From sequence record MN176217: a DNA stretch of 64,000 bases. One strand, written 5' to 3'. Origin of the DNA: Escherichia phage vB_Eco4M-7. This document shows, piece after piece, positions 2,979 through 58,111 of this stretch (the first letter of the stretch is position 1; every line of letters begins with the position of its first letter). The notes beneath the pieces are model-generated. The model was given only the letters and a program-made list of their open reading frames with translations, searched no databases and was not told the origin of the DNA. The position numbers were made by a program, and so were the translations under genes.

Positions 2979-3126
2979 AGCCCGTTTGTTATTCATCAAG
3001 CTGCATGTGCCATATAAGATTAGTAAGCGCACCTGGCTTAACATTTACAACCGCGGCGGCGACCGTTGTTTGTACAAGGCAAAGCGGCGCAAGAAGGTAT
3101 ATTCTTACACAACATCAATCAAATAA
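2962..3126 (+). CDS. small basic hypothetical protein
   Basis: ATG at 2962 after GGAGGG; in frame with ORF track 2935..3126. Confidence 0.3.
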   Translation: MTSNLKARLLFIKLHVPYKISKRTWLNIYNRGGDRCLYKAKRRKKVYSYTTSIK

Positions 3127-6180: not shown

Positions 6181-6326
6181 TCTTACGGATGATACGGATA
6201 AAACTGAGCATCGTTATATATAGAATTCGAAAAATTAATTAACTCCATTTTAAAAACATTTATATTAATTTTTTTCATATCCTCATACTTATGTTAATTT
6301 ATATATTTAACGTATCATCCGTAAGA
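6181..6326. repeat. inverted-repeat element A: TCTTACGGATGATACG arms flanking ~110 bp AT-rich core
   Basis: 6181-6199 TCTTACGGATGATACGGAT; 6311-6326 is its reverse complement; extra ATACG boxes at 6018, 6112, 6355-6378. Confidence 0.8.
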
Positions 6327-6606
6327 TATAAGTAAAAACAAAGACTTGCGGCAATACGGATGATACGTCATGATACGCTTCAACCAGCCAGCAGCGGCTA
6401 AGTCATTGATTTGCATAACAAGCGGCGAAAGGGATGGATTTCTTTTATACGTATCAAACAGTACACCACGCACCACGGTCCGCAATCCTATTTGCACTAT
6501 GATTTGTGTACGTTTATAGCCATAATGAACATCAATCTGCACTTGAATATAATGTCCATCCATTGTATAATTCACACTATTAATTTGCACTATGGGATTT
6601 TGCACT

Positions 6607-22024: not shown

Positions 22025-22255
22025 AGAGGAAGTTATGCAAAAGATCATTCAGTCACGTTATGTTAAAGTGCGAAATATTAATTGCAACTCTTTGCTTTCT
22101 TGGAAATGGGCTGTTTATGACTCAATGTTGATTGGCGTTTTAGTTGCAGGAGTGCTATTTAATATTCACTGAATTCATCGGCAAAGGATTGCCGCGAGTT
22201 TTATACGTATAATGACGTATCATACGTATCAAGTAAGTTATTGTTTTCAAAAGAA

Positions 22256-22402
22256 TCTTACGGATGATACGGATGATACGCATCGCCGCCGTACTATATA
22301 GGAATTCAAATAAATTAATTTAAAATTATATATCTAATTTAATTTTATTTTTTTATAAACTCTTATATATGAAAAGTATCCGTATCATCCGTATCATCCG
22401 TA
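22256..22402. repeat. inverted-repeat element B: TACGGATGATACGGATGATACG arms flanking ~95 bp AT-rich core
   Basis: 22256-22280 and reverse complement at 22378-22402; further arm at 22461-22477; shares AATCTTACGGATGATACGGAT with element A. Confidence 0.8.
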
Positions 22403-22535
22403 GCACACCAGTGATAGCGCGGCTTATACACCGATACGGATAAAAATACGCCTCATTTTATCCGTATCATCCGTATCACACTAATAAAGGCGCGGCTATA
22501 TCGGTTGTTATACATATTCAAACCATAATTATTGT

Positions 22536-22564
22536 TTGCCTAAGTTTTTTTCATTAGATATAAT
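22536..22564 (+). promoter_or_regulatory. sigma70-like promoter TTGCCT-N17-TATAAT
   Basis: -35 22536-22541, -10 22559-22564, upstream of scaffold-like gene. Confidence 0.5.
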
Positions 22565-22587
22565 ACACAATACTTATTTGAGGGTGG

Positions 22588-24006
22588 ATGCGAATGCAAA
22601 CGGCACGCGAAATTGACAAAAATGGATTCTTGACGATTATGGGTTGTCCAATTTCGTCATTTGGCATTTTTGATTATTCTGCTGGTCAAGTTGGTCTTGA
22701 TGGTGATCCGAATCGCATCGTAAAAGTCTATCGCCCTGAGTCAGCGGTGAAAGACCCCGAAGCGATAGATTCATTCAAAAATATCCCTTTCATCGACAAT
22801 CACGAAATGCTTTCTGGATTTGAAGGTGATGAGGATAACACAGCACCCGAAGAGTATGGAGTTGATGGCGTTCTGACTGGCAATGTTTATTATGACAAGC
22901 CATGGATGCGCGGCGACCTTAAAGTGTTTAGCCGTCGTCTGAAGAAGGCCATTGATTCTGGAAAGGTTGACTTGTCTTTGGGCTATGACTGTGAATTCAT
23001 CATACAGTCTGGAGAGTTTGACGGGCAGCCGTATGAAGTGGTGCAGACAACTCTTCGCGGCAACCACATTGCTCTCGTGGACGTTGGTCGAGTACCAGGT
23101 GCACGGGTGCTGGATGGTCGTTGCTTTGACCATCTTTGTTTGACGACTGTAACACCATCCAACGAGGATTTAGACATGCCAAAACCGTTAAAAGGTAAAG
23201 CGCGTGATAATGCTGTTGAACAGCTGAAATCACTGATCCCTGCGCTCGAACAATTTCTGAATGAAGAGAGTACTGAAGCTGCTCATCAGGACGAAGTTGA
23301 AGTGAAAGCAGAAGAGAAGGACTCAACCGAAAATCGTGAAGAAGTAATGGTTGATCCAGAAGTCAAGGCAGAAGCAGAAGAAACCCCAGAAGGTGAAGAG
23401 AAGTTTGAAGTTGAAACTGAATCTAACGCTGGCGGCGAACTTCCGCAATTGATCAGCCAAATCGAAGCACTTATTGCAAAACTGAAAGGTGGCGCGGTAG
23501 GTGATGAAGAAGAAGTTGAAGCCGAAGTCAAAGACGAAGAAGTTGAAGTCAAGGCTGAAGATGTATCACCTTGCGACAAAGCTGAAGATGTGGTTAGCGG
23601 CCTGCAAAACAGCAACGTAAAGGGGGCTTCGGTCGAAAAAGATGACAAACCGACAAAAGCGGCGAAAGCGTCGCCAGGTCCAGCAAAAGGGGAACACTCA
23701 ATGGCATCTGATTCAGCAGTTGCTGCTTTCTACGCTGATTCTGCTCGTAAGAATAGCCTCTACCAGCGCCTGTCTAAAGTTGTTGGTGCCTTTGATCATG
23801 CAACTATGGACTCCAAGTCCGTAGCGAAATATGGCGCTAAAAAGTTAGGCTTGAAGTGCGTTGATGGTGCTGAGTTTGACGTGGTGGATAATTATCTACG
23901 CGGCGTTGAGCACGGTCAAAAACAGCGTGTAGTCGCAAAACAAAAGGCCGCTGCGGATTCTGCAGCAACTGACGAAGCATTTGAAGCTTGGTTGAAAGGG
24001 GAATAA
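22588..24006 (+). CDS. putative prohead scaffolding protein (possibly with N-terminal protease-like domain)
   Basis: 472 aa; long acidic E/K/V-rich central region; position between MuF-like and capsid genes. Confidence 0.45.
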   Translation: MRMQTAREIDKNGFLTIMGCPISSFGIFDYSAGQVGLDGDPNRIVKVYRPESAVKDPEAIDSFKNIPFIDNHEMLSGFEGDEDNTAPEEYGVDGVLTGNVYYDKPWMRGDLKVFSRRLKKAIDSGKVDLSLGYDCEFIIQSGEFDGQPYEVVQTTLRGNHIALVDVGRVPGARVLDGRCFDHLCLTTVTPSNEDLDMPKPLKGKARDNAVEQLKSLIPALEQFLNEESTEAAHQDEVEVKAEEKDSTENREEVMVDPEVKAEAEETPEGEEKFEVETESNAGGELPQLISQIEALIAKLKGGAVGDEEEVEAEVKDEEVEVKAEDVSPCDKAEDVVSGLQNSNVKGASVEKDDKPTKAAKASPGPAKGEHSMASDSAVAAFYADSARKNSLYQRLSKVVGAFDHATMDSKSVAKYGAKKLGLKCVDGAEFDVVDNYLRGVEHGQKQRVVAKQKAAADSAATDEAFEAWLKGE

Positions 24007-28295: not shown

Positions 28296-29834
28296 GTGAT
28301 CAGTCAATCTCGTTATATTAAAATTGTATCAGGGGTCGGAGCAGGCGCGGCTGTTGCAGTTCGCAAACTGTCGCTTCGCATCATGACTTCCAATACAGTC
28401 CTGCCGCCTGGCATTGTAGCAGAATTTTCAACTGCTGATGCCGTTGGATCATATTTCGGTTTTTCTTCCGAAGAATACAAGCGTGCAGCATTGTATTTTG
28501 GATTCATCAGCAAGCAAATCAACTCGCCTGATTCAATCAGCTTTTCTCGCGTTGTATCCACGGCGATTCCTGCAATGGTTATCGGCGATACTGAGCCTAA
28601 AACGCTTGCTACTTTTCAGGCATTCACTGGCGCTATCTTAAGCATCACTTATGACGGCACAGACTACCTGACTGACGCCATCAACCTTTCAGCGGCAACA
28701 AGCCTTGCCAACGTAGCGGAACTTTTGGAAACGGCAATCAACACCAAGTTTGCAGCCGAAGGTGGCACGTCGGTGCCTGCACTTGCTGATGCAGAAGTGT
28801 ATTGGAATGCCAACACCCAGCAGTTCACTTTGGAAGCCGCTACGTCGACCGCTGGTGCTGGAAACCTTTCGATTAACGTCACAGGTCAACCGACAGACCC
28901 ATCTCAGGCGCTTGGTTGGACGACTACTGGCACCGTTACGGTTGCTGGCCAGGGTGTAGCAAGTCCGGTAGAAGCCATCGCGGCATCTGTGGAGATTTCC
29001 AACAACTTTGGCTCATTCCTTTTCGCTGGAGCAAACCGAACGCTGGAAGAAATCACAGCCGTTGCAGCTTGGACTCACTCGCAGAACAATATGTACATGT
29101 ATCTGTTCTCGACTGCATTCGCCAACATTGGCTCATACTATACCGCACTGAAAGGTTACTCAGGCGTTGGTATGATGATCCGTGCAACCAACCTTGCGAA
29201 TGATTACATCGACCAGGCACCTGCTGAAATTCTCGCGGCGACAAACTATAATACTGTAAATGCAACTCAAAACTACATGTACTATCAGTTTGACACGCGA
29301 AATGTTACTGTATCGACTGATTCACGCGCAGATACTGCTGATCAAAACCGTGCAAACTATATCGGCGCTACTCAGCAAGCTGGTCAAACGCTCGCATTTT
29401 TCCAGCGTGGCGTTCTGATGGGCGGGTCTACCGCAGCAGTTGACATGAACACTTATGCCAACGAGATGTGGCTTAAATCTGCTATCACTTCTCAGCTGTT
29501 CAGCATGTTCTTGGATCTTGGTCGCGTGCCTGCAAACGAAGAAGGCAAAGCGACTGTCCAAGCAATGATTCAAGTTGCTGTTGACAATGCGAAGGTTAAC
29601 GGCACCATCTCTGTCGGTAAGGCGCTGACGGAAATCCAGAAACAGTACATCACGCAAACTTCCGGTGATAACACTGCTTGGCGGCAGGTTGAGACTATCG
29701 GTTATTGGTTGACTGTCGATTTTGACACTGAAACCACTTCCGATAACCGCACCGAATACTATGCAACATACACGCTAATCTACTCTAAAGATGATGCTGT
29801 GCGTCGCGTTGAAGGTCGTGACGTTCTTATTTAA
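28296..29834 (+). CDS. putative tail sheath protein
   Basis: 512 aa, immediately upstream of tube-like gene; positional inference only. Confidence 0.5.
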   Translation: MISQSRYIKIVSGVGAGAAVAVRKLSLRIMTSNTVLPPGIVAEFSTADAVGSYFGFSSEEYKRAALYFGFISKQINSPDSISFSRVVSTAIPAMVIGDTEPKTLATFQAFTGAILSITYDGTDYLTDAINLSAATSLANVAELLETAINTKFAAEGGTSVPALADAEVYWNANTQQFTLEAATSTAGAGNLSINVTGQPTDPSQALGWTTTGTVTVAGQGVASPVEAIAASVEISNNFGSFLFAGANRTLEEITAVAAWTHSQNNMYMYLFSTAFANIGSYYTALKGYSGVGMMIRATNLANDYIDQAPAEILAATNYNTVNATQNYMYYQFDTRNVTVSTDSRADTADQNRANYIGATQQAGQTLAFFQRGVLMGGSTAAVDMNTYANEMWLKSAITSQLFSMFLDLGRVPANEEGKATVQAMIQVAVDNAKVNGTISVGKALTEIQKQYITQTSGDNTAWRQVETIGYWLTVDFDTETTSDNRTEYYATYTLIYSKDDAVRRVEGRDVLI

Positions 29835-30349: not shown

Positions 30350-30678
30350 TGTATCAAATACCACTTGACAGCGTACCTAACCAGAATATCAGCTTTAACG
30401 TTGACGGTGCATATTGGCAGTTGCACATTTTTGCCGCTATCGAGCATATGTGTGCCGACGTATATCGCAATGGTGAACTTTTGATTCAAGGGGTGCGCTG
30501 TTTTGATGGTATCCCAATGGTGCCTTATAAGTATCTCATGATTGGGTACGGTAATTTCATTTTCGACAGCGTACCTGATTATGAAAGTTTTAACTCTGGC
30601 GGCTGTAATCTATATTACATGTCAGAATCTGAGTTGGCTGAATTCCAGGCCACTGCTGAAGCGGAGTTTGCAATTTGA
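30349..30678 (+). CDS. hypothetical tail protein
   Basis: ORF track 109 aa. Confidence 0.45.
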   Translation: MYQIPLDSVPNQNISFNVDGAYWQLHIFAAIEHMCADVYRNGELLIQGVRCFDGIPMVPYKYLMIGYGNFIFDSVPDYESFNSGGCNLYYMSESELAEFQATAEAEFAI

Positions 30679-31031
30679 CAACTCTAACCATTGAAGTGAA
30701 CGAAAATAATGACCTTTTTCTACCTGATGGAAGAAACTTAAATATTCTTTCAGGAGAAAAAGCGATGGTGCAAGTAATCAAGGCCGCGCATCAGATGCGA
30801 CTTGGTGAAGACTTGTACGATATAGAAAACGGGGTCGATTATTTGGGGACCGTTTTCAAGTCGCCCGTTGACGAAGACGGTGCGCGAAAGTCGATTGCAG
30901 ATGCTATTCTGAAGAAAGCAGACGTTGCCGGAATCGACTCATTGACTGTCACCATCCAAAACGGTATCCTTGGATTCACTGCAGAAGTGGTGACTATTTA
31001 TGGCGAACGTATAAAGGTGAGTAATCAATAA
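30675..31031 (+). CDS. hypothetical tail protein
   Basis: ORF track 118 aa; TTG start. Confidence 0.4.
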   Translation: MTTLTIEVNENNDLFLPDGRNLNILSGEKAMVQVIKAAHQMRLGEDLYDIENGVDYLGTVFKSPVDEDGARKSIADAILKKADVAGIDSLTVTIQNGILGFTAEVVTIYGERIKVSNQ

Positions 31032-32330: not shown

Positions 32331-32890
32331 TGGACTTCGTTTCGATTCTGCTTTCTGGTCAATCTTTGACCATAACGAATGAGTCAACAGGTCTTCCTGT
32401 CTGGACAAGGCTTTCACCTGTTTCTGCAGAAATAACATCCCCAGCAGAAACAACTCAATTCCCTCTTGCCGGTACAGCCATGCAGGTTGTCGAAGTATCA
32501 AGCACGTCATCAGTAAGCAATTTACAGGCGGCAAAGGTTGTAATGCCAGCCCATATGGCGTTAAACGTAATTTGCAATGACCAGTCTACAATTGAAAATA
32601 TCATAAATTCATTTGATGATGACGAAGTCACATTTTCAATAACTTCTCGAAGCATCATTGCCAGTAAAATGTCGATGTCCGACGTTGAAATAACCCAGTC
32701 AGAAGAAAACTTGAATGGAGTCTCAATAGTAATAACTTTCGAGCAAACGTCATTTAGCATTCAAGGAAGCTTCGACCCTAAACAATCTGCAGACGAATCA
32801 TCAAATGGTGTTGCTATTAAAGAACCAGTCAGTTTGACTACAACTGTGAGTTCGTTATATAATAAAATAAAATCAACAGTAGGAATATAA
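32330..32890 (+). CDS. hypothetical tail protein
   Basis: ORF track 186 aa; Ser/Thr-rich. Confidence 0.45.
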   Translation: MDFVSILLSGQSLTITNESTGLPVWTRLSPVSAEITSPAETTQFPLAGTAMQVVEVSSTSSVSNLQAAKVVMPAHMALNVICNDQSTIENIINSFDDDEVTFSITSRSIIASKMSMSDVEITQSEENLNGVSIVITFEQTSFSIQGSFDPKQSADESSNGVAIKEPVSLTTTVSSLYNKIKSTVGI

Positions 32891-33311: not shown

Positions 33312-35492
33312 GTGTCTGACTCATTAGAAAAATTTGTGCTTCAATATACGGTGGACTTGAAAGAGTCCATCAATCGTCTTGAGCAATTGCAAGATAAGGT
33401 TGATCAGACAAACAAAAAGGCAAAATCCGCTGGCAAAGATTTCTCTGGAGCATTCAAAGATGTTTTTGGCGAGCTAAAGCCGCTTACTGGTGAGCTAGGG
33501 TCAATTGACGGAATACTTGCGCGGCTGACATATCGTTTTGCCGCGCTCGTCCCTGTTGTCGCAGGATTGGCCGTCGTCGTCAAATCCATCGTTGATGTTC
33601 GAAAAGAATACGAAGCGCAAAGAAAGCTTGGTTTTGAAGCCGGACTCTCTCCAATGGGTGTCGAACAACTACAACGACAGTTGAATGAAAGTTCAGGGGG
33701 CATCCTTGGCGCACAGGGGTCGCGCGATTTAATCAGCAAAGCTTCTAATTTGGCATTCAACGCATACACCAACCCTGATGTGATGAACAAGGACAACTTG
33801 TTGCTGAACAAGATGGGGACAAGTCCTTTCAACAGTAACGGCGGCATCAAAGACACGAATCAGCTGCTTGATGAAATTGGAACAAAGCTGAGAAGTGTTA
33901 ATGAGCAAACCGCGCGTGCCATTGGTGCTCTGGCAGGATTCACGGCTGATGAAGTCCGCGCCCTTCGTGAGCGCAACCAGTCTGTGAAAGAAAGCACGCG
34001 CATAAGTGACGAAGAAACCGCGAAGCTGCAAAGACAGCAAGCTGCTCTTGAGACTATACGAAATAGTATGGGGCAAATTCAAGAAGATTGGCGGCGTATT
34101 GAACTGGTCATCGGTGAAAACGTTATGCCTGCATTCTCGACGCTTGTCAGCAAAACCGCCGATACAGTCGAAGGATTCCAGATGATGTTCCAAAGAATGT
34201 CTGACGGATGGAGCGAATTTGTCGACAATTTCATTGCTGACTTGAAACATCCGTTCGACAAGCAGGCCGCTGTCAACGAGCGTCACGAGCGTGCCGTTGA
34301 TAGATGGATCACGCAGATGGCAGACGGCGATGTGAAACGCCAGAGGAATCAAGAGCAGAACGCTGCTGAACAACGTTCTGCACAGGCGCTTTTCACTCGT
34401 GATATAAATCTTTTTTCAAGCGCCGTGTCAACTTTTGCTGGCGTGATTGATGAGCGTCAAGCTTGGGCGGCATGGGCAGGTGAAATTGGGCGCAGCGCAG
34501 GGCAATCCGCGATGCCTGGAACGCCTGCATTGAATACTGGCGCGACCATAGGGAATAATCTTGGGTCAGGAAACCCGACAGTGTATGACTCAATATATGA
34601 GGAAGCTTCAAAACGCTATGGCATACCTGTGGCGATGATGAAGGCCGTGACTGAAGTTGAATCTGGATTCAATCCAAATGCTGTGAGCGGAGCAGGCGCG
34701 ACTGGTTTGATGCAAATAATGCCTTCTAACTTCAAGGGTCTTGGAATAACCGATGGCAATGATCCTCGACAAAACATTATGGGCGGCGCTCAACTGTTGA
34801 AAGAGTATTTAAACGCTGCCAACGGCGATTGGAATCTTGCGCTGACGATGTATCACGGTGGCTACGACCGCAGCGGCTGGGGCAAGAATACACGCGCTTA
34901 TCCTGGAAAGGTCATGGCCGCTCTCGACCGACAATCCAATGGTGAGTATGCCACGGCAGCGCCGCAAGGTGCACCAGTTACTCCAGTACTTAGCGGTAGC
35001 GGAGCGGAAGCGCCAAAGGGCAGCTATGCACCAGTACAAGGCCAATCGCGCCAAACGGTGCAATACAGGCAATTGCAAGAAGCCATTGCAGGATACCTGA
35101 ACGTACCAGTTGAGCAGTTGATGCAGGGACAAGTCAACAAAGGTGATATTGACTTTGCTCAAACTTACCTTAAGCTTGGCACGCAAAGGGATTATATTAA
35201 AAACATGCAACTGGCTTCAACTCCAGGTGTAAGACCGAACATTCAAGCCGAAGCGATGAAAAACGCTCGTCTTGCTGCATTCCAGCTTGAAGCATTCCAG
35301 AAATATGGCGGCGACCTTTCCGCGAATAGTCGACCTGGTGGGCGTGATATTACTATGGGTCAGAAAAACGTTGTCATCAACGTCAACGGCGCTCAAGACC
35401 CACGCAGCACGGCATTCGAAACGAAACGGGTGCTTGAACAAGATGATATCAACGACATAAACAACCTTACTGCTACACCTTTGAAGTGGTGA
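33312..35492 (+). CDS. tail tape measure protein with lytic transglycosylase (SLT) domain
   Basis: 726 aa, GTG start; coiled-coil-like body; VTEVESGFNPNAVSGAGATGLMQIMPSNF. Confidence 0.7.
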   Translation: MSDSLEKFVLQYTVDLKESINRLEQLQDKVDQTNKKAKSAGKDFSGAFKDVFGELKPLTGELGSIDGILARLTYRFAALVPVVAGLAVVVKSIVDVRKEYEAQRKLGFEAGLSPMGVEQLQRQLNESSGGILGAQGSRDLISKASNLAFNAYTNPDVMNKDNLLLNKMGTSPFNSNGGIKDTNQLLDEIGTKLRSVNEQTARAIGALAGFTADEVRALRERNQSVKESTRISDEETAKLQRQQAALETIRNSMGQIQEDWRRIELVIGENVMPAFSTLVSKTADTVEGFQMMFQRMSDGWSEFVDNFIADLKHPFDKQAAVNERHERAVDRWITQMADGDVKRQRNQEQNAAEQRSAQALFTRDINLFSSAVSTFAGVIDERQAWAAWAGEIGRSAGQSAMPGTPALNTGATIGNNLGSGNPTVYDSIYEEASKRYGIPVAMMKAVTEVESGFNPNAVSGAGATGLMQIMPSNFKGLGITDGNDPRQNIMGGAQLLKEYLNAANGDWNLALTMYHGGYDRSGWGKNTRAYPGKVMAALDRQSNGEYATAAPQGAPVTPVLSGSGAEAPKGSYAPVQGQSRQTVQYRQLQEAIAGYLNVPVEQLMQGQVNKGDIDFAQTYLKLGTQRDYIKNMQLASTPGVRPNIQAEAMKNARLAAFQLEAFQKYGGDLSANSRPGGRDITMGQKNVVINVNGAQDPRSTAFETKRVLEQDDINDINNLTATPLKW

Positions 35493-35496
35493 TAAT

Positions 35497-36369
35497 TTGA
35501 AAAAGAGAATCCTTAAAGTCACCTTATCTATGCCGGATGGCACAAGCCAAGTGCTTGATGAAGGATTGATGCTCAGATGCCGAATCAAAAAGGCAGCACT
35601 TTCCGTGCAGAATAAGGCCACAATCGAAGTTGCAGGATTGACAGGGTACTTGAGAGAGTACCTGCTTTCCAACTTCACCGCATTCAACAAACGTCTGCGT
35701 GATCAAGGCCAATTGGCGGCGAATTATGTCAACGTAACAATTGAAGCTGGATATAGAGAAGGCAACGTTGTTAGTAGCAACTTAGTCTACAAGGGGCAAG
35801 TCACAACGGTCGAGATAACAGCGCCGCCGCCGAACATCGTCATACGCATCACTTGCTACACCAACCAGATAAACAGGACTAAGTTTATCACTCAAGCTGC
35901 ACCGTCAAACCCAACATTCAAAGAGTTTGTGGAGTGGTCGGCAAAGCAAATGGACATTGATACTGTTATATGCGATACTTCGATTAACAATCAGCGCCTT
36001 GTTAACCCAGGCCGCACAACATATGTTGCAGCCGCCTTGTTGCTTGAGATTCAGAACTATCAAAGGAACTCTATTGCGGCATATATCGATGATGATACGC
36101 TCATCGTCAAGGATAAAGACAAAATTCTGAATCCAGAACAGATAACGGTGATTGAGGAATTTGTCGGAATACCGATGTGGAACGAGTGGGGTGCTGACTT
36201 CACTTGCATGTATAACGCGGATTTGAAGCTTGCCCAAGGTGTGAAATTCAAATCAGTCTTAAACCCAAGCTTGAACGACACCACATTTGTCATCATGCAA
36301 CTTGAATATGATTTAGCAAGTCGTGATGATATATTTACGGTGACGGGCGGCGTTGCACCATCGGCCTAA
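35497..36369 (+). CDS. putative baseplate/distal tail protein
   Basis: ORF track 290 aa downstream of tape measure. Confidence 0.4.
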   Translation: MKKRILKVTLSMPDGTSQVLDEGLMLRCRIKKAALSVQNKATIEVAGLTGYLREYLLSNFTAFNKRLRDQGQLAANYVNVTIEAGYREGNVVSSNLVYKGQVTTVEITAPPPNIVIRITCYTNQINRTKFITQAAPSNPTFKEFVEWSAKQMDIDTVICDTSINNQRLVNPGRTTYVAAALLLEIQNYQRNSIAAYIDDDTLIVKDKDKILNPEQITVIEEFVGIPMWNEWGADFTCMYNADLKLAQGVKFKSVLNPSLNDTTFVIMQLEYDLASRDDIFTVTGGVAPSA

Positions 36370-36371
36370 AT

Positions 36372-36893
36372 ATGAGAAAGAATAAAGTAATTGAGCTGTT
36401 TGGAGTTACTTATGAAATACATCAATTCAGCGCAATAGACGCGTTTGAAATGGTTGATGCGATAAGCATATTAACTCCACTTGAATTATTAAGTGAATGT
36501 TATGTTATTAAATATGACGGAACTAAAGTCAGATTAAACTCTGAGAAGGCCATAAGTGAAGAAGTGAAAAGTGTGCCAAATCACTTGCCGCCCAACCTTG
36601 TATTGAAAGTTCTAATGGAAGCGGTGAAGAAGCACAATTTTGGATTCCTCAGTGATTGGAAAGGCACTAAGATCCCAAATAGATTCTTGGCTGACGTCCC
36701 GACCGTAGAGCCTAATTATCTTGAGCCGATGGTTGCAAGCCTAATAAACAATGGTCTTGCTTCGTTAAAAGAATTGGAAGAATATTATTCATTGCGTGAT
36801 GCATTCGCTATGTTTGATGGACTAATAGCAAAATCACTTAATGAAGCCTACTCAAACGAAGCTGCCATTAAAGAATCAAAGTCAAATCGCTAA
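36372..36893 (+). CDS. hypothetical protein (AT-rich insertion in baseplate cluster)
   Basis: ORF track 173 aa; visibly AT-richer codon usage than flanking genes. Confidence 0.5.
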   Translation: MRKNKVIELFGVTYEIHQFSAIDAFEMVDAISILTPLELLSECYVIKYDGTKVRLNSEKAISEEVKSVPNHLPPNLVLKVLMEAVKKHNFGFLSDWKGTKIPNRFLADVPTVEPNYLEPMVASLINNGLASLKELEEYYSLRDAFAMFDGLIAKSLNEAYSNEAAIKESKSNR

Positions 36894-36903
36894 AATATTG
36901 CTT

Positions 36904-36952
36904 ATAGACTCCTTATAGATTATAATTTGTTGATCAGATCTAAGGAGTCTAT
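36904..36952 (+). promoter_or_regulatory. RBS-sequestering hairpin with embedded TATAAT
   Basis: 12-bp perfect inverted repeat 36904-36915 / 36941-36952 pairing the AAGGAG RBS and ATG 36951; TATAAT at 36919-36924 in the loop. Confidence 0.5.
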
Positions 36953-37679
36953 GATGGCAGAAAAGTTAACCCAACTTACAAGCCCCAACCAAACTGACAA
37001 ATCAAGTATGTTTGCCGCGCTGCAGGGAATGCTGGACCGTGGCAAGTATACCACTGACGGCATGATTCCTGCACAAGTAATATCTTATGACCGCAAACAA
37101 AATTTAGCAGTCATAAAGCCTGTTATTCATTTCGTAAGTCTTGATGATAAACCAGTGGAGCGTCAACCTTTGGTGTCAATTCCTGTATTGGCAATTGGCG
37201 GCGGCGGCTTCGTGATCAACTTTCCTTTGAAAGAGGGCGATTTGGGCTGGATATTCGCTGGCGACCGCGAGTTGTCGACATTCCTTGAAGAATTGAAGCC
37301 GACCGCGCCTACCAATGGCCGCGCGAAAACTTTCGCTGATGGACTGTTCATACCGGATGTATTCCGAAAATACACCATAAGCGGAGAGGATGCAGGCTCA
37401 ATGGTAATTCAGTCACTCAGCGGCGCTGTACGAATCGCATTAAGTGATGACTCGATAAACATAACTGCATCGGCTGGAGTAAATGTGAAAACACCAATAA
37501 CCACTATCGACCAACAATTGATAGTTAATGGAAAGGCAACGTTCAATGGTGGTATAGAAGGGAAAGAAGGAACGACGGCAACGCTTCCGACTGGCACAAC
37601 AATCGGCGGCACAAATGTATCCACTCACGGTCACATAGGTAACGGACCTGGAAACAGAACTGGGGATATGATAGAATGA
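36951..37679 (+). CDS. putative baseplate spike/hub protein
   Basis: ATG 36951 after AAGGAG; in frame with ORF track 36927..37679; Gly/Thr-rich C-terminus. Confidence 0.4.
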   Translation: MMAEKLTQLTSPNQTDKSSMFAALQGMLDRGKYTTDGMIPAQVISYDRKQNLAVIKPVIHFVSLDDKPVERQPLVSIPVLAIGGGGFVINFPLKEGDLGWIFAGDRELSTFLEELKPTAPTNGRAKTFADGLFIPDVFRKYTISGEDAGSMVIQSLSGAVRIALSDDSINITASAGVNVKTPITTIDQQLIVNGKATFNGGIEGKEGTTATLPTGTTIGGTNVSTHGHIGNGPGNRTGDMIE

Positions 37680-55843: not shown

Positions 55844-55910
55844 TTATTTATCCTTTTTTTGGACTTCGTTTCGATGAGGTAAATATAACTCATCGAAACG
55901 CACAAGTAAA

Positions 55911-58046: not shown

Positions 58047-58111
58047 TTTCGTTTCCTCTATGAGTTCTGCTTCAATGATTAAAGTATACGCCCATTGAAG
58101 CAGAAAGCAAA

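Follow-up and report, generated by a model that had tools for sequence, protein, structure and literature searches.

The window analysed here is a stretch of 64,000 nucleotides from Escherichia phage vB_Eco4M-7 (MN176217), and the locus of interest is a short non-coding spacer in its structural region, between a 173-aa ORF and the gene for the tail tip (Table 1). The local gene order was read from Pfam and from annotated relatives. The segment 35400-38000 has 100% identity to Escherichia phage vB_Eco4M-7n (PP596836) and 90-98% identity to 27 other records, nearly all of them Wifcevirus, which one record assigns to the Lindbergviridae (PB1/E217-like myophages). The tail-tip gene is the counterpart of 14-1 gp42 and of Pa193 gp44, identified as the tail tip in the Pa193 structure paper, and in Bas98-101 it is annotated as 'baseplate spike'. 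Its stop codon overlaps the start of the wedge gene (37676). The nearest strong promoter upstream of the spacer is also the strongest sigma70-like promoter of the structural region (32834-32863). It lies just 5' of a 138-aa gene, which precedes the tape measure gene, and its position is equivalent to that of P016/P017 of Pseudomonas phage 14-1, upstream of gp38. The terminator scan found no terminator-like site on the plus strand from this promoter to 36893. This promoter is likely the source of an RNA that would read through the 138-aa gene, the tape measure, the hub and the 173-aa gene.

Table 1. Features of the tail-tip locus of vB_Eco4M-7, in positions of the window.
Feature	Position	Strand	Basis or remark
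Sigma70-like promoter TTGACT-18-TATAAT	32834..32863	+	Best regional match, 11/12
Tape measure / lytic tail protein with SLT domain	33312-35492		
Baseplate hub (E217 gp41 family)	35530-36369		
173-aa AT-rich ORF, ATG start	36372-36893	+	
Spacer, 60 nt	Between the 173-aa ORF and the tail-tip gene		
-35-like hexamer TTGCTT	36898..36903	+	3/6 match, 17 nt 5' of the -10 box; direct reading
5' (left) arm of the hairpin	36899..36915	+	Perfect core 36904-36915
-10 box, perfect TATAAT	36921..36926	+	In the hairpin loop
Predicted transcription start, A36933 +/- 1 nt	36932..36934	+	Position of the -10 box and 14-1 P018
3' (right) arm of the hairpin	36941..36959	+	Perfect core 36941-36952; holds the Shine-Dalgarno and both ATGs
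Shine-Dalgarno AAGGAG	36942-36947	+	
Tail tip / baseplate spike, phi92 gp138-like N-terminal domain	36954-37679	+	Pfam PF18352, 4.1e-15
Wedge proteins and fibre	Downstream of the tail-tip gene		

The 173-aa gene has a GC content of 37.4% (GC3 34.5%), whereas the genome as a whole stands at 46.2% and the hub and spike genes at 45.5% and 46.8%, respectively. This is the second lowest value among 63 annotated genes, about 1.9 sd under the mean of the structural genes; three other genes are also found at 35-39% GC. A sequence-only reading of the window had noticed this AT-richness, which our values bear out, but it had also taken it as a sign of later acquisition, and that explanation fails: the gene is a syntenic core gene in at least six genera and evolves like its neighbours. 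A tblastn search with the 173-aa protein matched 362 phage records, from Pseudomonas Pbunavirus, Pantoea, Serratia, Burkholderia, Xylella/Xanthomonas and others. Homologues with 35-50% identity occupy the hub/tail-tip junction in Pbunavirus, Kylevirus, Myosmarvirus, Carpasinavirus and Burkholderia phages, and a homologue lies between the hub and tail-tip genes in all eight other phages in which synteny was compared (E217, 14-1, Kyle, SMP, Hera, MATE2, Karil-Mokiny-1 and BCSR129). Its GC content is below that of both neighbours in five of these eight (Kyle, Karil-Mokiny-1, E217, 14-1 and MATE2, with E217 and 14-1 both belonging to Pbunavirus). Within Wifcevirus, the third-position variability is 0.42 in the 173-aa gene and 0.40 in the hub gene. 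As judged from these comparisons, low GC belongs to the gene itself and does not point to its having been acquired.

The encoded protein is a homologue of E217 gp42 and 14-1 gp41, and gene order equates it with Pa193 gp43. Its structure was predicted with database homologues, and Foldseek gave many weak matches to annotated tail assembly chaperones. One PHROG chaperone family also matches the protein (7.8e-4), while a sequence comparison with solved structures gave no match. The Pa193 atlas covers gp41 (tape measure), gp42 (hub) and gp44 (tail tip) and skips the product in between, and the E217 paper never mentions gp42. The modelled fold and these absences from the virion descriptions suggest that the 173-aa protein is probably a conserved, chaperone-like, non-virion assembly factor. 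It differs from known tail assembly chaperones (lambda gpG/GT, HK97 gp12, Bacillus subtilis YqbN/XkdN) in the position of its gene, which comes after the tape measure and hub genes instead of directly before the tape measure gene, in an extra C-terminal helical domain and in a sequence similarity below family thresholds. A programmed frameshift stimulated by the downstream hairpin was considered and rejected: inspection of the reading frames by eye revealed no slippery heptamer or frameshift extension in the 173-aa ORF, and each of the two shifted frames runs into a stop codon no more than about 10 codons from the end of the ORF.

The spacer that follows this gene contains a perfect 12-bp inverted repeat, ATAGACTCCTTA / TAAGGAGTCTAT, with 25 nt between the arms. 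The sequence-only reading had described it as pairing the AAGGAG and ATG region of the next gene, and it is present exactly as described. In RNA the helix grows to 17 pairs and encloses the start codon, the additional pairs being T36903-G36953 and, across a 2-nt bulge, T36899-A36959, G36900-C36958, C36901-G36957 and T36902-G36956. The RNA folding calculation proposed as a check gave an MFE of -23.4 kcal/mol for 81 nt (z = -4.7), and none of 200 shuffles was as stable. Five distinct perfect inverted repeats of at least 12 bp with loops of 3-40 nt were found in the window, against an expectation of 0.17 seeds derived from 100 first-order Markov simulations. There are ATG codons at 36951 and 36954; the latter is the annotated start, and it fits a conserved N-terminal Met-Ala (ATGGCN) found in 22 of 26 lineages compared. 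Rfam 15 covariance models produced no match with E <= 1 in the segment 36700-37100. The TATAAT that had been noticed in the loop is there, but at 36921-36926, since the coordinates first given for it, 36919-36924, read ATTATA. The observation is confirmed as real and non-random.

Some other repeats were observed in the window. The promoter spacer and left arm hold an 8-nt direct repeat, CTTATAGA (36901-36908 and 36912-36919; spacing 11 nt), which does not vary within Wifcevirus and is missing from other genera. Two more perfect inverted repeats of 12-13 bp, with loops of 10 and 15-17 nt, lie at 55867-55900 and 58065-58105 and may be terminators or regulatory hairpins of a minus-strand gene block. 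In addition, a non-coding gap of 421 nt (22172-22594) is crowded with ATCCGTATCATCCGTATC-type repeats and inverted repeats and folds with -118.7 kcal/mol. The same type of motif also makes a perfect 14-bp inverted repeat at 6310-6368. These ATCCGTATCATCCGTATC-type repeats may mark an origin of replication or packaging, or else serve as a series of sites for a regulator to bind.

The -10 box in the loop belongs to a candidate promoter with sigma70 layout (two hexamers with a spacer of 16-18 nt). Its -35-like hexamer matches the consensus at 3/6 positions, its -10 box at 6/6, and the two are 17 nt apart. The -35 is weak, and the consensus promoter scan, whose rule the element falls short of, did not list it. 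Transcription from the predicted start would give a 5' leader of about 21 nt without the left arm. The left arm lies within the promoter spacer and is thus present only in RNA that comes from upstream promoters. No transcription literature on Wifcevirus was found. An occluding hairpin is not a general trait of internal promoters in this region, as the strong promoter at 32834-32863 has no start-occluding hairpin.

The accessibility of start regions was calculated as an opening energy, i.e., the cost to unpair positions -14 to +5 in a context of -90 to +40, for every annotated gene (63 in total) within the first 50 kb of PP596836. At 20.2 kcal/mol, the tail-tip gene has the most occluded start region and ranks first of the 63 (median 6.2, sd 3.4). 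On an RNA that starts 7 nt after TATAAT, the same region requires 6.6 kcal/mol, an ordinary value. When the upstream segment was shuffled, the tail-tip region required 8.4 +/- 1.5 kcal/mol, and none of 30 shuffles matched the observed value. The calculated gap between the long and the short RNA is 13.6 kcal/mol, which under the usual thermodynamic models would correspond to an estimated several hundred-fold less initiation. The sequence-only reading had proposed that read-through transcripts fold and block translation and that transcripts started inside the loop do not. The occlusion of the RBS on the long RNA and its opening on the short one stand by calculation, and a start at the equivalent place is mapped in phage 14-1 (see below); the read-through RNA itself and a difference in translation between the two forms are predictions.

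A second occluded RBS was found in the same scan, where a hairpin at 30728-30767 precedes the ATG at 30765 (ORF 30765-31031; 19.0 kcal/mol, rank 2 of 63). In this hairpin CCTTTTTCT-CCTGA pairs with TCAGGAGAAAAAGG and buries AGGAG, and there is no TATAAT or internal promoter in it. The gene start differs between annotations, being either this ATG (88 aa) or a TTG at 30675 (118 aa), and the ORF corresponds by position to the sheath-initiator region of Pa193. The lack of a promoter in this hairpin shows that RBS occlusion can occur in the genome without a switch.

Conservation was examined in a 3.2-kb neighbourhood of 12 Wifcevirus genomes. Only 2 of the 60 sites of the spacer are variable, compared with 14% of columns in the neighbourhood; at third codon positions the proportion is about 40%. 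No stretch of the 3.2 kb without variation is longer than 36849-36931, which spans the left arm and the -10 box, and the TATAAT is invariant in all 12 genomes. The spacer is under strong purifying selection. One of the differences concerns position 36940, which is C in vB_Eco4M-7 and A in the 11 other genomes. With A the perfect core extends to 14 bp and the opening energy is 22.7 kcal/mol, while with C the values are 12 bp and 20.2 kcal/mol. In Bas100, which has the 14-bp core, the opening energy is 22.7 kcal/mol against 5.8 kcal/mol on the short RNA.

Homologous spacers were also collected from GenBank phages, IMG/VR contigs and Logan assemblies, giving 26 distinct lineages that include relatives at 72% and 55% protein identity. 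These lineages are mutually related, so that the statistical tests given here overstate their independence. The arms shift register between lineages, and opening energies with shuffled upstream sequence and a strand-asymmetry test were used instead of column covariation. The spacer is retained in the 26 lineages with a length of 34-69 nt, while adjacent genes mostly abut or overlap, and it holds a promoter of sigma70-type layout in each of them. A perfect TATAAT stands at the equivalent place in 21 of the 26, and in most relatives a -35 hexamer (TTTACT, TTGATC or TTTACA) lies exactly 17 nt upstream of the -10 box. These hexamers match the CTTTACT that is common among the sigma70-type promoters of 14-1. 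From the end of the -10 box to the ATG there are 21-33 nt across lineages. In 22 of the 26, bases 5' of the predicted start site pair with the start region; this pairing accounts for 282 of 365 paired nucleotides. The arm sequences themselves are unrelated: ATAGACTCCTTA, ATCCCGC, TTGCACCCA, ACCTCTTACAG, GGGAAGGC and others were found. With respect to the -10 box, the left arm can be placed upstream, on top or just after, whereas the right arm sits on the Shine-Dalgarno and start codon in every case. A shifting left arm with a fixed right arm is the pattern that selection on RNA pairing would predict.

Opening energies of at least 15 kcal/mol were obtained in 12 lineages, and these were matched by 0-1 of 30 shuffles. 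Furthermore, folding favours the sense over the antisense strand in 21 of the 26 lineages; the mean difference is -3.3 kcal/mol (p = 3e-4), while flanking control windows of equal length have a strand asymmetry of 0.0 kcal/mol. The spacers are also more structured than their flanks (-20.6 vs -15.1 kcal/mol). The strand asymmetry comes from G-U pairs and therefore indicates an RNA structure, not a DNA palindrome. About 5-23 nt separate the stems from the stop codon of the upstream gene, and a ribosome that terminates there is therefore not expected to melt them. In about a quarter of the lineages (L027, L029, L031, L034, L051 and L056) the promoter is found without a clear occluding hairpin. 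The hairpin is thus dispensable in some relatives, and the promoter, which is kept there, is the more ancient or more constrained part. In lineage L047 (IMGVR_UViG_3300048898_000066, 3010-3050) a TATAAT ends just 6 nt before the tail-tip ATG and a hairpin, GCCATCCG...CGGATGGC, lies over the tail-tip start codon. To judge by this spacing, the internal promoter of L047 would give a leaderless or near-leaderless mRNA.

A transcript map has been published for one relative, Pseudomonas phage 14-1. ONT-cappable-seq located the sigma70-type promoter P018, with a start at 28318 on the plus strand (Putzeys et al., microLife 2024, PMC10914365), and the list of start sites marks P018 as validated (Table S3, bioRxiv 10.1101/2023.10.13.562163). 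P018 gave a significant msfGFP signal in vivo and drives the reporter in E. coli as well as in P. aeruginosa (PMC10914365). The transcription unit assigned to it, TU018, comprises gp42 (spike) and gp43 (wedge) (PMC10914365; bioRxiv Table S3). Only seven promoters are mapped in the structural region of 14-1, P018 among them, and all are sigma70-type, in data that pool the time points (PMC10914365). Sub-operon promoters with overlapping transcription units are common in such phages (PMC10914365), and none of the termination sites listed for 14-1 lies at the P018 spacer (PMC10914365 and bioRxiv supplement). The account of P018 in the paper presents it as a promoter and describes no hairpin or translational control (PMC10914365).

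The 14-1 homologue of the 173-aa protein is gp41, and the gp42 gene begins at 28337. The mapped start is a C (L020:3565) that follows the final T of TATACT by 8 nt and precedes the ATG by 19 nt, and it lies 3' of the left arm CTGGGAAGGC. The opening energy of the start region is 12.1 kcal/mol against 6.1 kcal/mol on the short RNA, a moderate effect. The two phages thus share a homologous spacer, a sigma70-type promoter, a short leader (19 nt in 14-1) and a start region paired with sequence 5' of the start site. They differ in nucleotide sequence, in the -10 box (TATACT in 14-1) and in the weaker calculated occlusion of 14-1. In addition, the left arm of 14-1 lies between the -35 and -10 boxes, whereas in vB_Eco4M-7 it is the -10 box that lies in the loop.

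We consider it fairly probable that the overlapping sigma70 promoter and hairpin form a transcript-dependent translation switch of the T4 gene e kind, a reading in which we infer the firing of the promoter, the read-through RNA and the translational block. RNA from upstream promoters, which covers the tape measure, hub and 173-aa genes, would carry both arms. These would form a helix of about 17 bp that hides the Shine-Dalgarno and start codon of the tail-tip gene, where ribosomes would then rarely initiate. RNA from the internal promoter (TTGCTT, TATAAT, start near 36933) would begin inside the loop without the 5' arm, and this short RNA with an open RBS would be the form that makes tail-tip protein. 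Through the overlapping stop and start codons, it would probably also yield the first wedge protein. Such an arrangement may set when, or in what amount, the tail tip is made in comparison with tape measure, hub and chaperone, although timing, like the order of assembly, is a guess. The Pa193 structure paper describes tape measure, hub and tail tip as trimers, and simple stoichiometry therefore fails to explain a silencing of the tail tip. The comparative evidence and the published transcript mapping in a relative give the regulatory interpretation good support, the difference in translation itself being a prediction.

Other explanations of the hairpin were considered. It could act as a 3' stabiliser of the RNA for tape measure, hub and 173-aa protein, or as an RNase III or RNase E processing site in it; occlusion would then be a side effect, and the promoter would restart transcription for the downstream baseplate genes. 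The hairpin does stand directly 3' of the upstream stop codon in all lineages, sub-operon promoters are frequent in these phages, as mentioned above, and the transcription units from P016/P017 of 14-1 were not followed as far as the P018 spacer. However, the 3' arm consistently falls on the Shine-Dalgarno and start codon, whereas the place of the 5' arm shifts with respect to both the -10 box and the stop codon; a pure 3' stabiliser has no need of this. The helices, of 11-18 bp, are also short for RNase III, and 14-1 has no called termination site at the spacer; we regard this explanation as unlikely. A stable stem-loop right behind a stop codon might also be an intrinsic (Rho-independent) terminator, which would end the upstream operon just before the new promoter. 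This candidate was rejected as extremely improbable: the stem is followed by the coding sequence GAAAAGTT and not by a U-tract, the next 8 nt hold 0-2 T in 24 of the 26 lineages, and a 25-nt loop and an AT-rich stem are atypical. The terminator scan did not call it, nor is a termination site mapped at the spacer in 14-1.

An occluded Shine-Dalgarno directly 3' of another ORF, with an outer stem that starts 6 nt past the stop codon, is what would be seen if the hairpin enforced translational coupling, in such a way that ribosomes ending the 173-aa gene melt it and the tail tip is made only then. The perfect core, however, starts 11 nt past the stop codon, and in other genera the stems lie 9-23 nt past it, out of reach of a terminating ribosome. 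Since such a ribosome should not open the stems, simple coupling is disfavoured; it also does not require a conserved promoter inside the structure, and we hold it to be improbable. A similar judgement applies to a DNA operator, in which the two arms, one on either side of the -10 box, would be bound by a dimeric regulator of the phage or host that controls the internal promoter. The arms do flank the promoter, the spacer is almost invariant in Wifcevirus, and the direct repeat CTTATAGA lies in the promoter spacer. Nevertheless, the separation of the arms and their position relative to the -10 box vary among lineages, which is ill-suited to a conserved dimer. The G-T positions pair only as G-U in the sense RNA, which is 3.3 kcal/mol more stable while the controls are symmetric, and the 14-1 promoter is active in E. 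coli without phage proteins. A DNA operator thus seems very improbable. None of these explanations accounts for a conserved promoter between or over the arms as well as the switch does.

A broader and more tentative reading, which we consider possible but rather doubtful, is that the promoter-in-hairpin serves the PB1/E217-like myophages as a checkpoint that is ancient and shared by the whole family. The tail tip, which caps the tape measure and nucleates the baseplate, would then be made from its own promoter only, and baseplate nucleation would be uncoupled, in timing or in amount, from the genes for tape measure, hub and chaperone that lie on the same long message. If this were true, the order of virion assembly would be controlled by transcript isoforms with host RNA polymerase alone. 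The switch itself, if true, would mean that a logic documented mainly in T4-type phages also works in an unrelated and therapeutically important group, which includes Pbunavirus phages such as E217, Pa193 and 14-1 as well as the E. coli O157 phage vB_Eco4M-7, and that it runs there on plain host-type promoters and governs a structural gene. It would also supply a reason for P018 of 14-1, a sub-operon promoter that has been mapped but left without an explanation. A reporter phage has been made by synthetic reconstruction of vB_Eco4M-7 (PMC11074155). For genome engineering of this kind, the 60-nt spacer should be treated as functional and unsuitable as a neutral insertion site. The element may also be of use in synthetic biology as a compact and portable part that would allow expression from a local promoter only, insulated from read-through.

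Control of this type is best known from T4, where RBS sequestration in gene e was reportedly the subject of work by McPheeters et al. in 1986. In the T4 genes e (lysozyme), soc, 49 and I-TevI, long transcripts of the early or middle class hide the RBS in a hairpin that has a late promoter within it (PMC3014915); for gene e, a 100-fold effect is cited in the same review (PMC3014915). The arrangement in vB_Eco4M-7 resembles that of T4 in several respects. The Shine-Dalgarno and start codon lie in a helix, which on the long transcript is calculated to be stable (about 17 bp, 20.2 kcal/mol), and its 5' strand is upstream of an internal promoter with a -10-type box in or beside the hairpin. Transcripts from the internal promoter, which in T4 are translatable, are predicted to lack the 5' strand, and in 14-1 the corresponding start is mapped. 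In both cases, the design is conserved among relatives while the sequence varies. There are also clear differences. The promoter of vB_Eco4M-7 is sigma70-type (TATAAT and a -35), whereas the T4 late promoter is TATAAATA and depends on gp55/gp33. Gene e has early and late classes of transcript, whereas in the relative 14-1 all mapped structural promoters are sigma70-type. The regulated gene here is that of the baseplate tail tip in a structural operon, not a gene for lysis, a nuclease or a homing endonuclease, and the Lindbergviridae-like family, for which translational control is a prediction from sequence, is unrelated to T4. The tail-tip locus is probably a case of gene e-type control on a structural gene, in a different phage family where such control appears to be undescribed.
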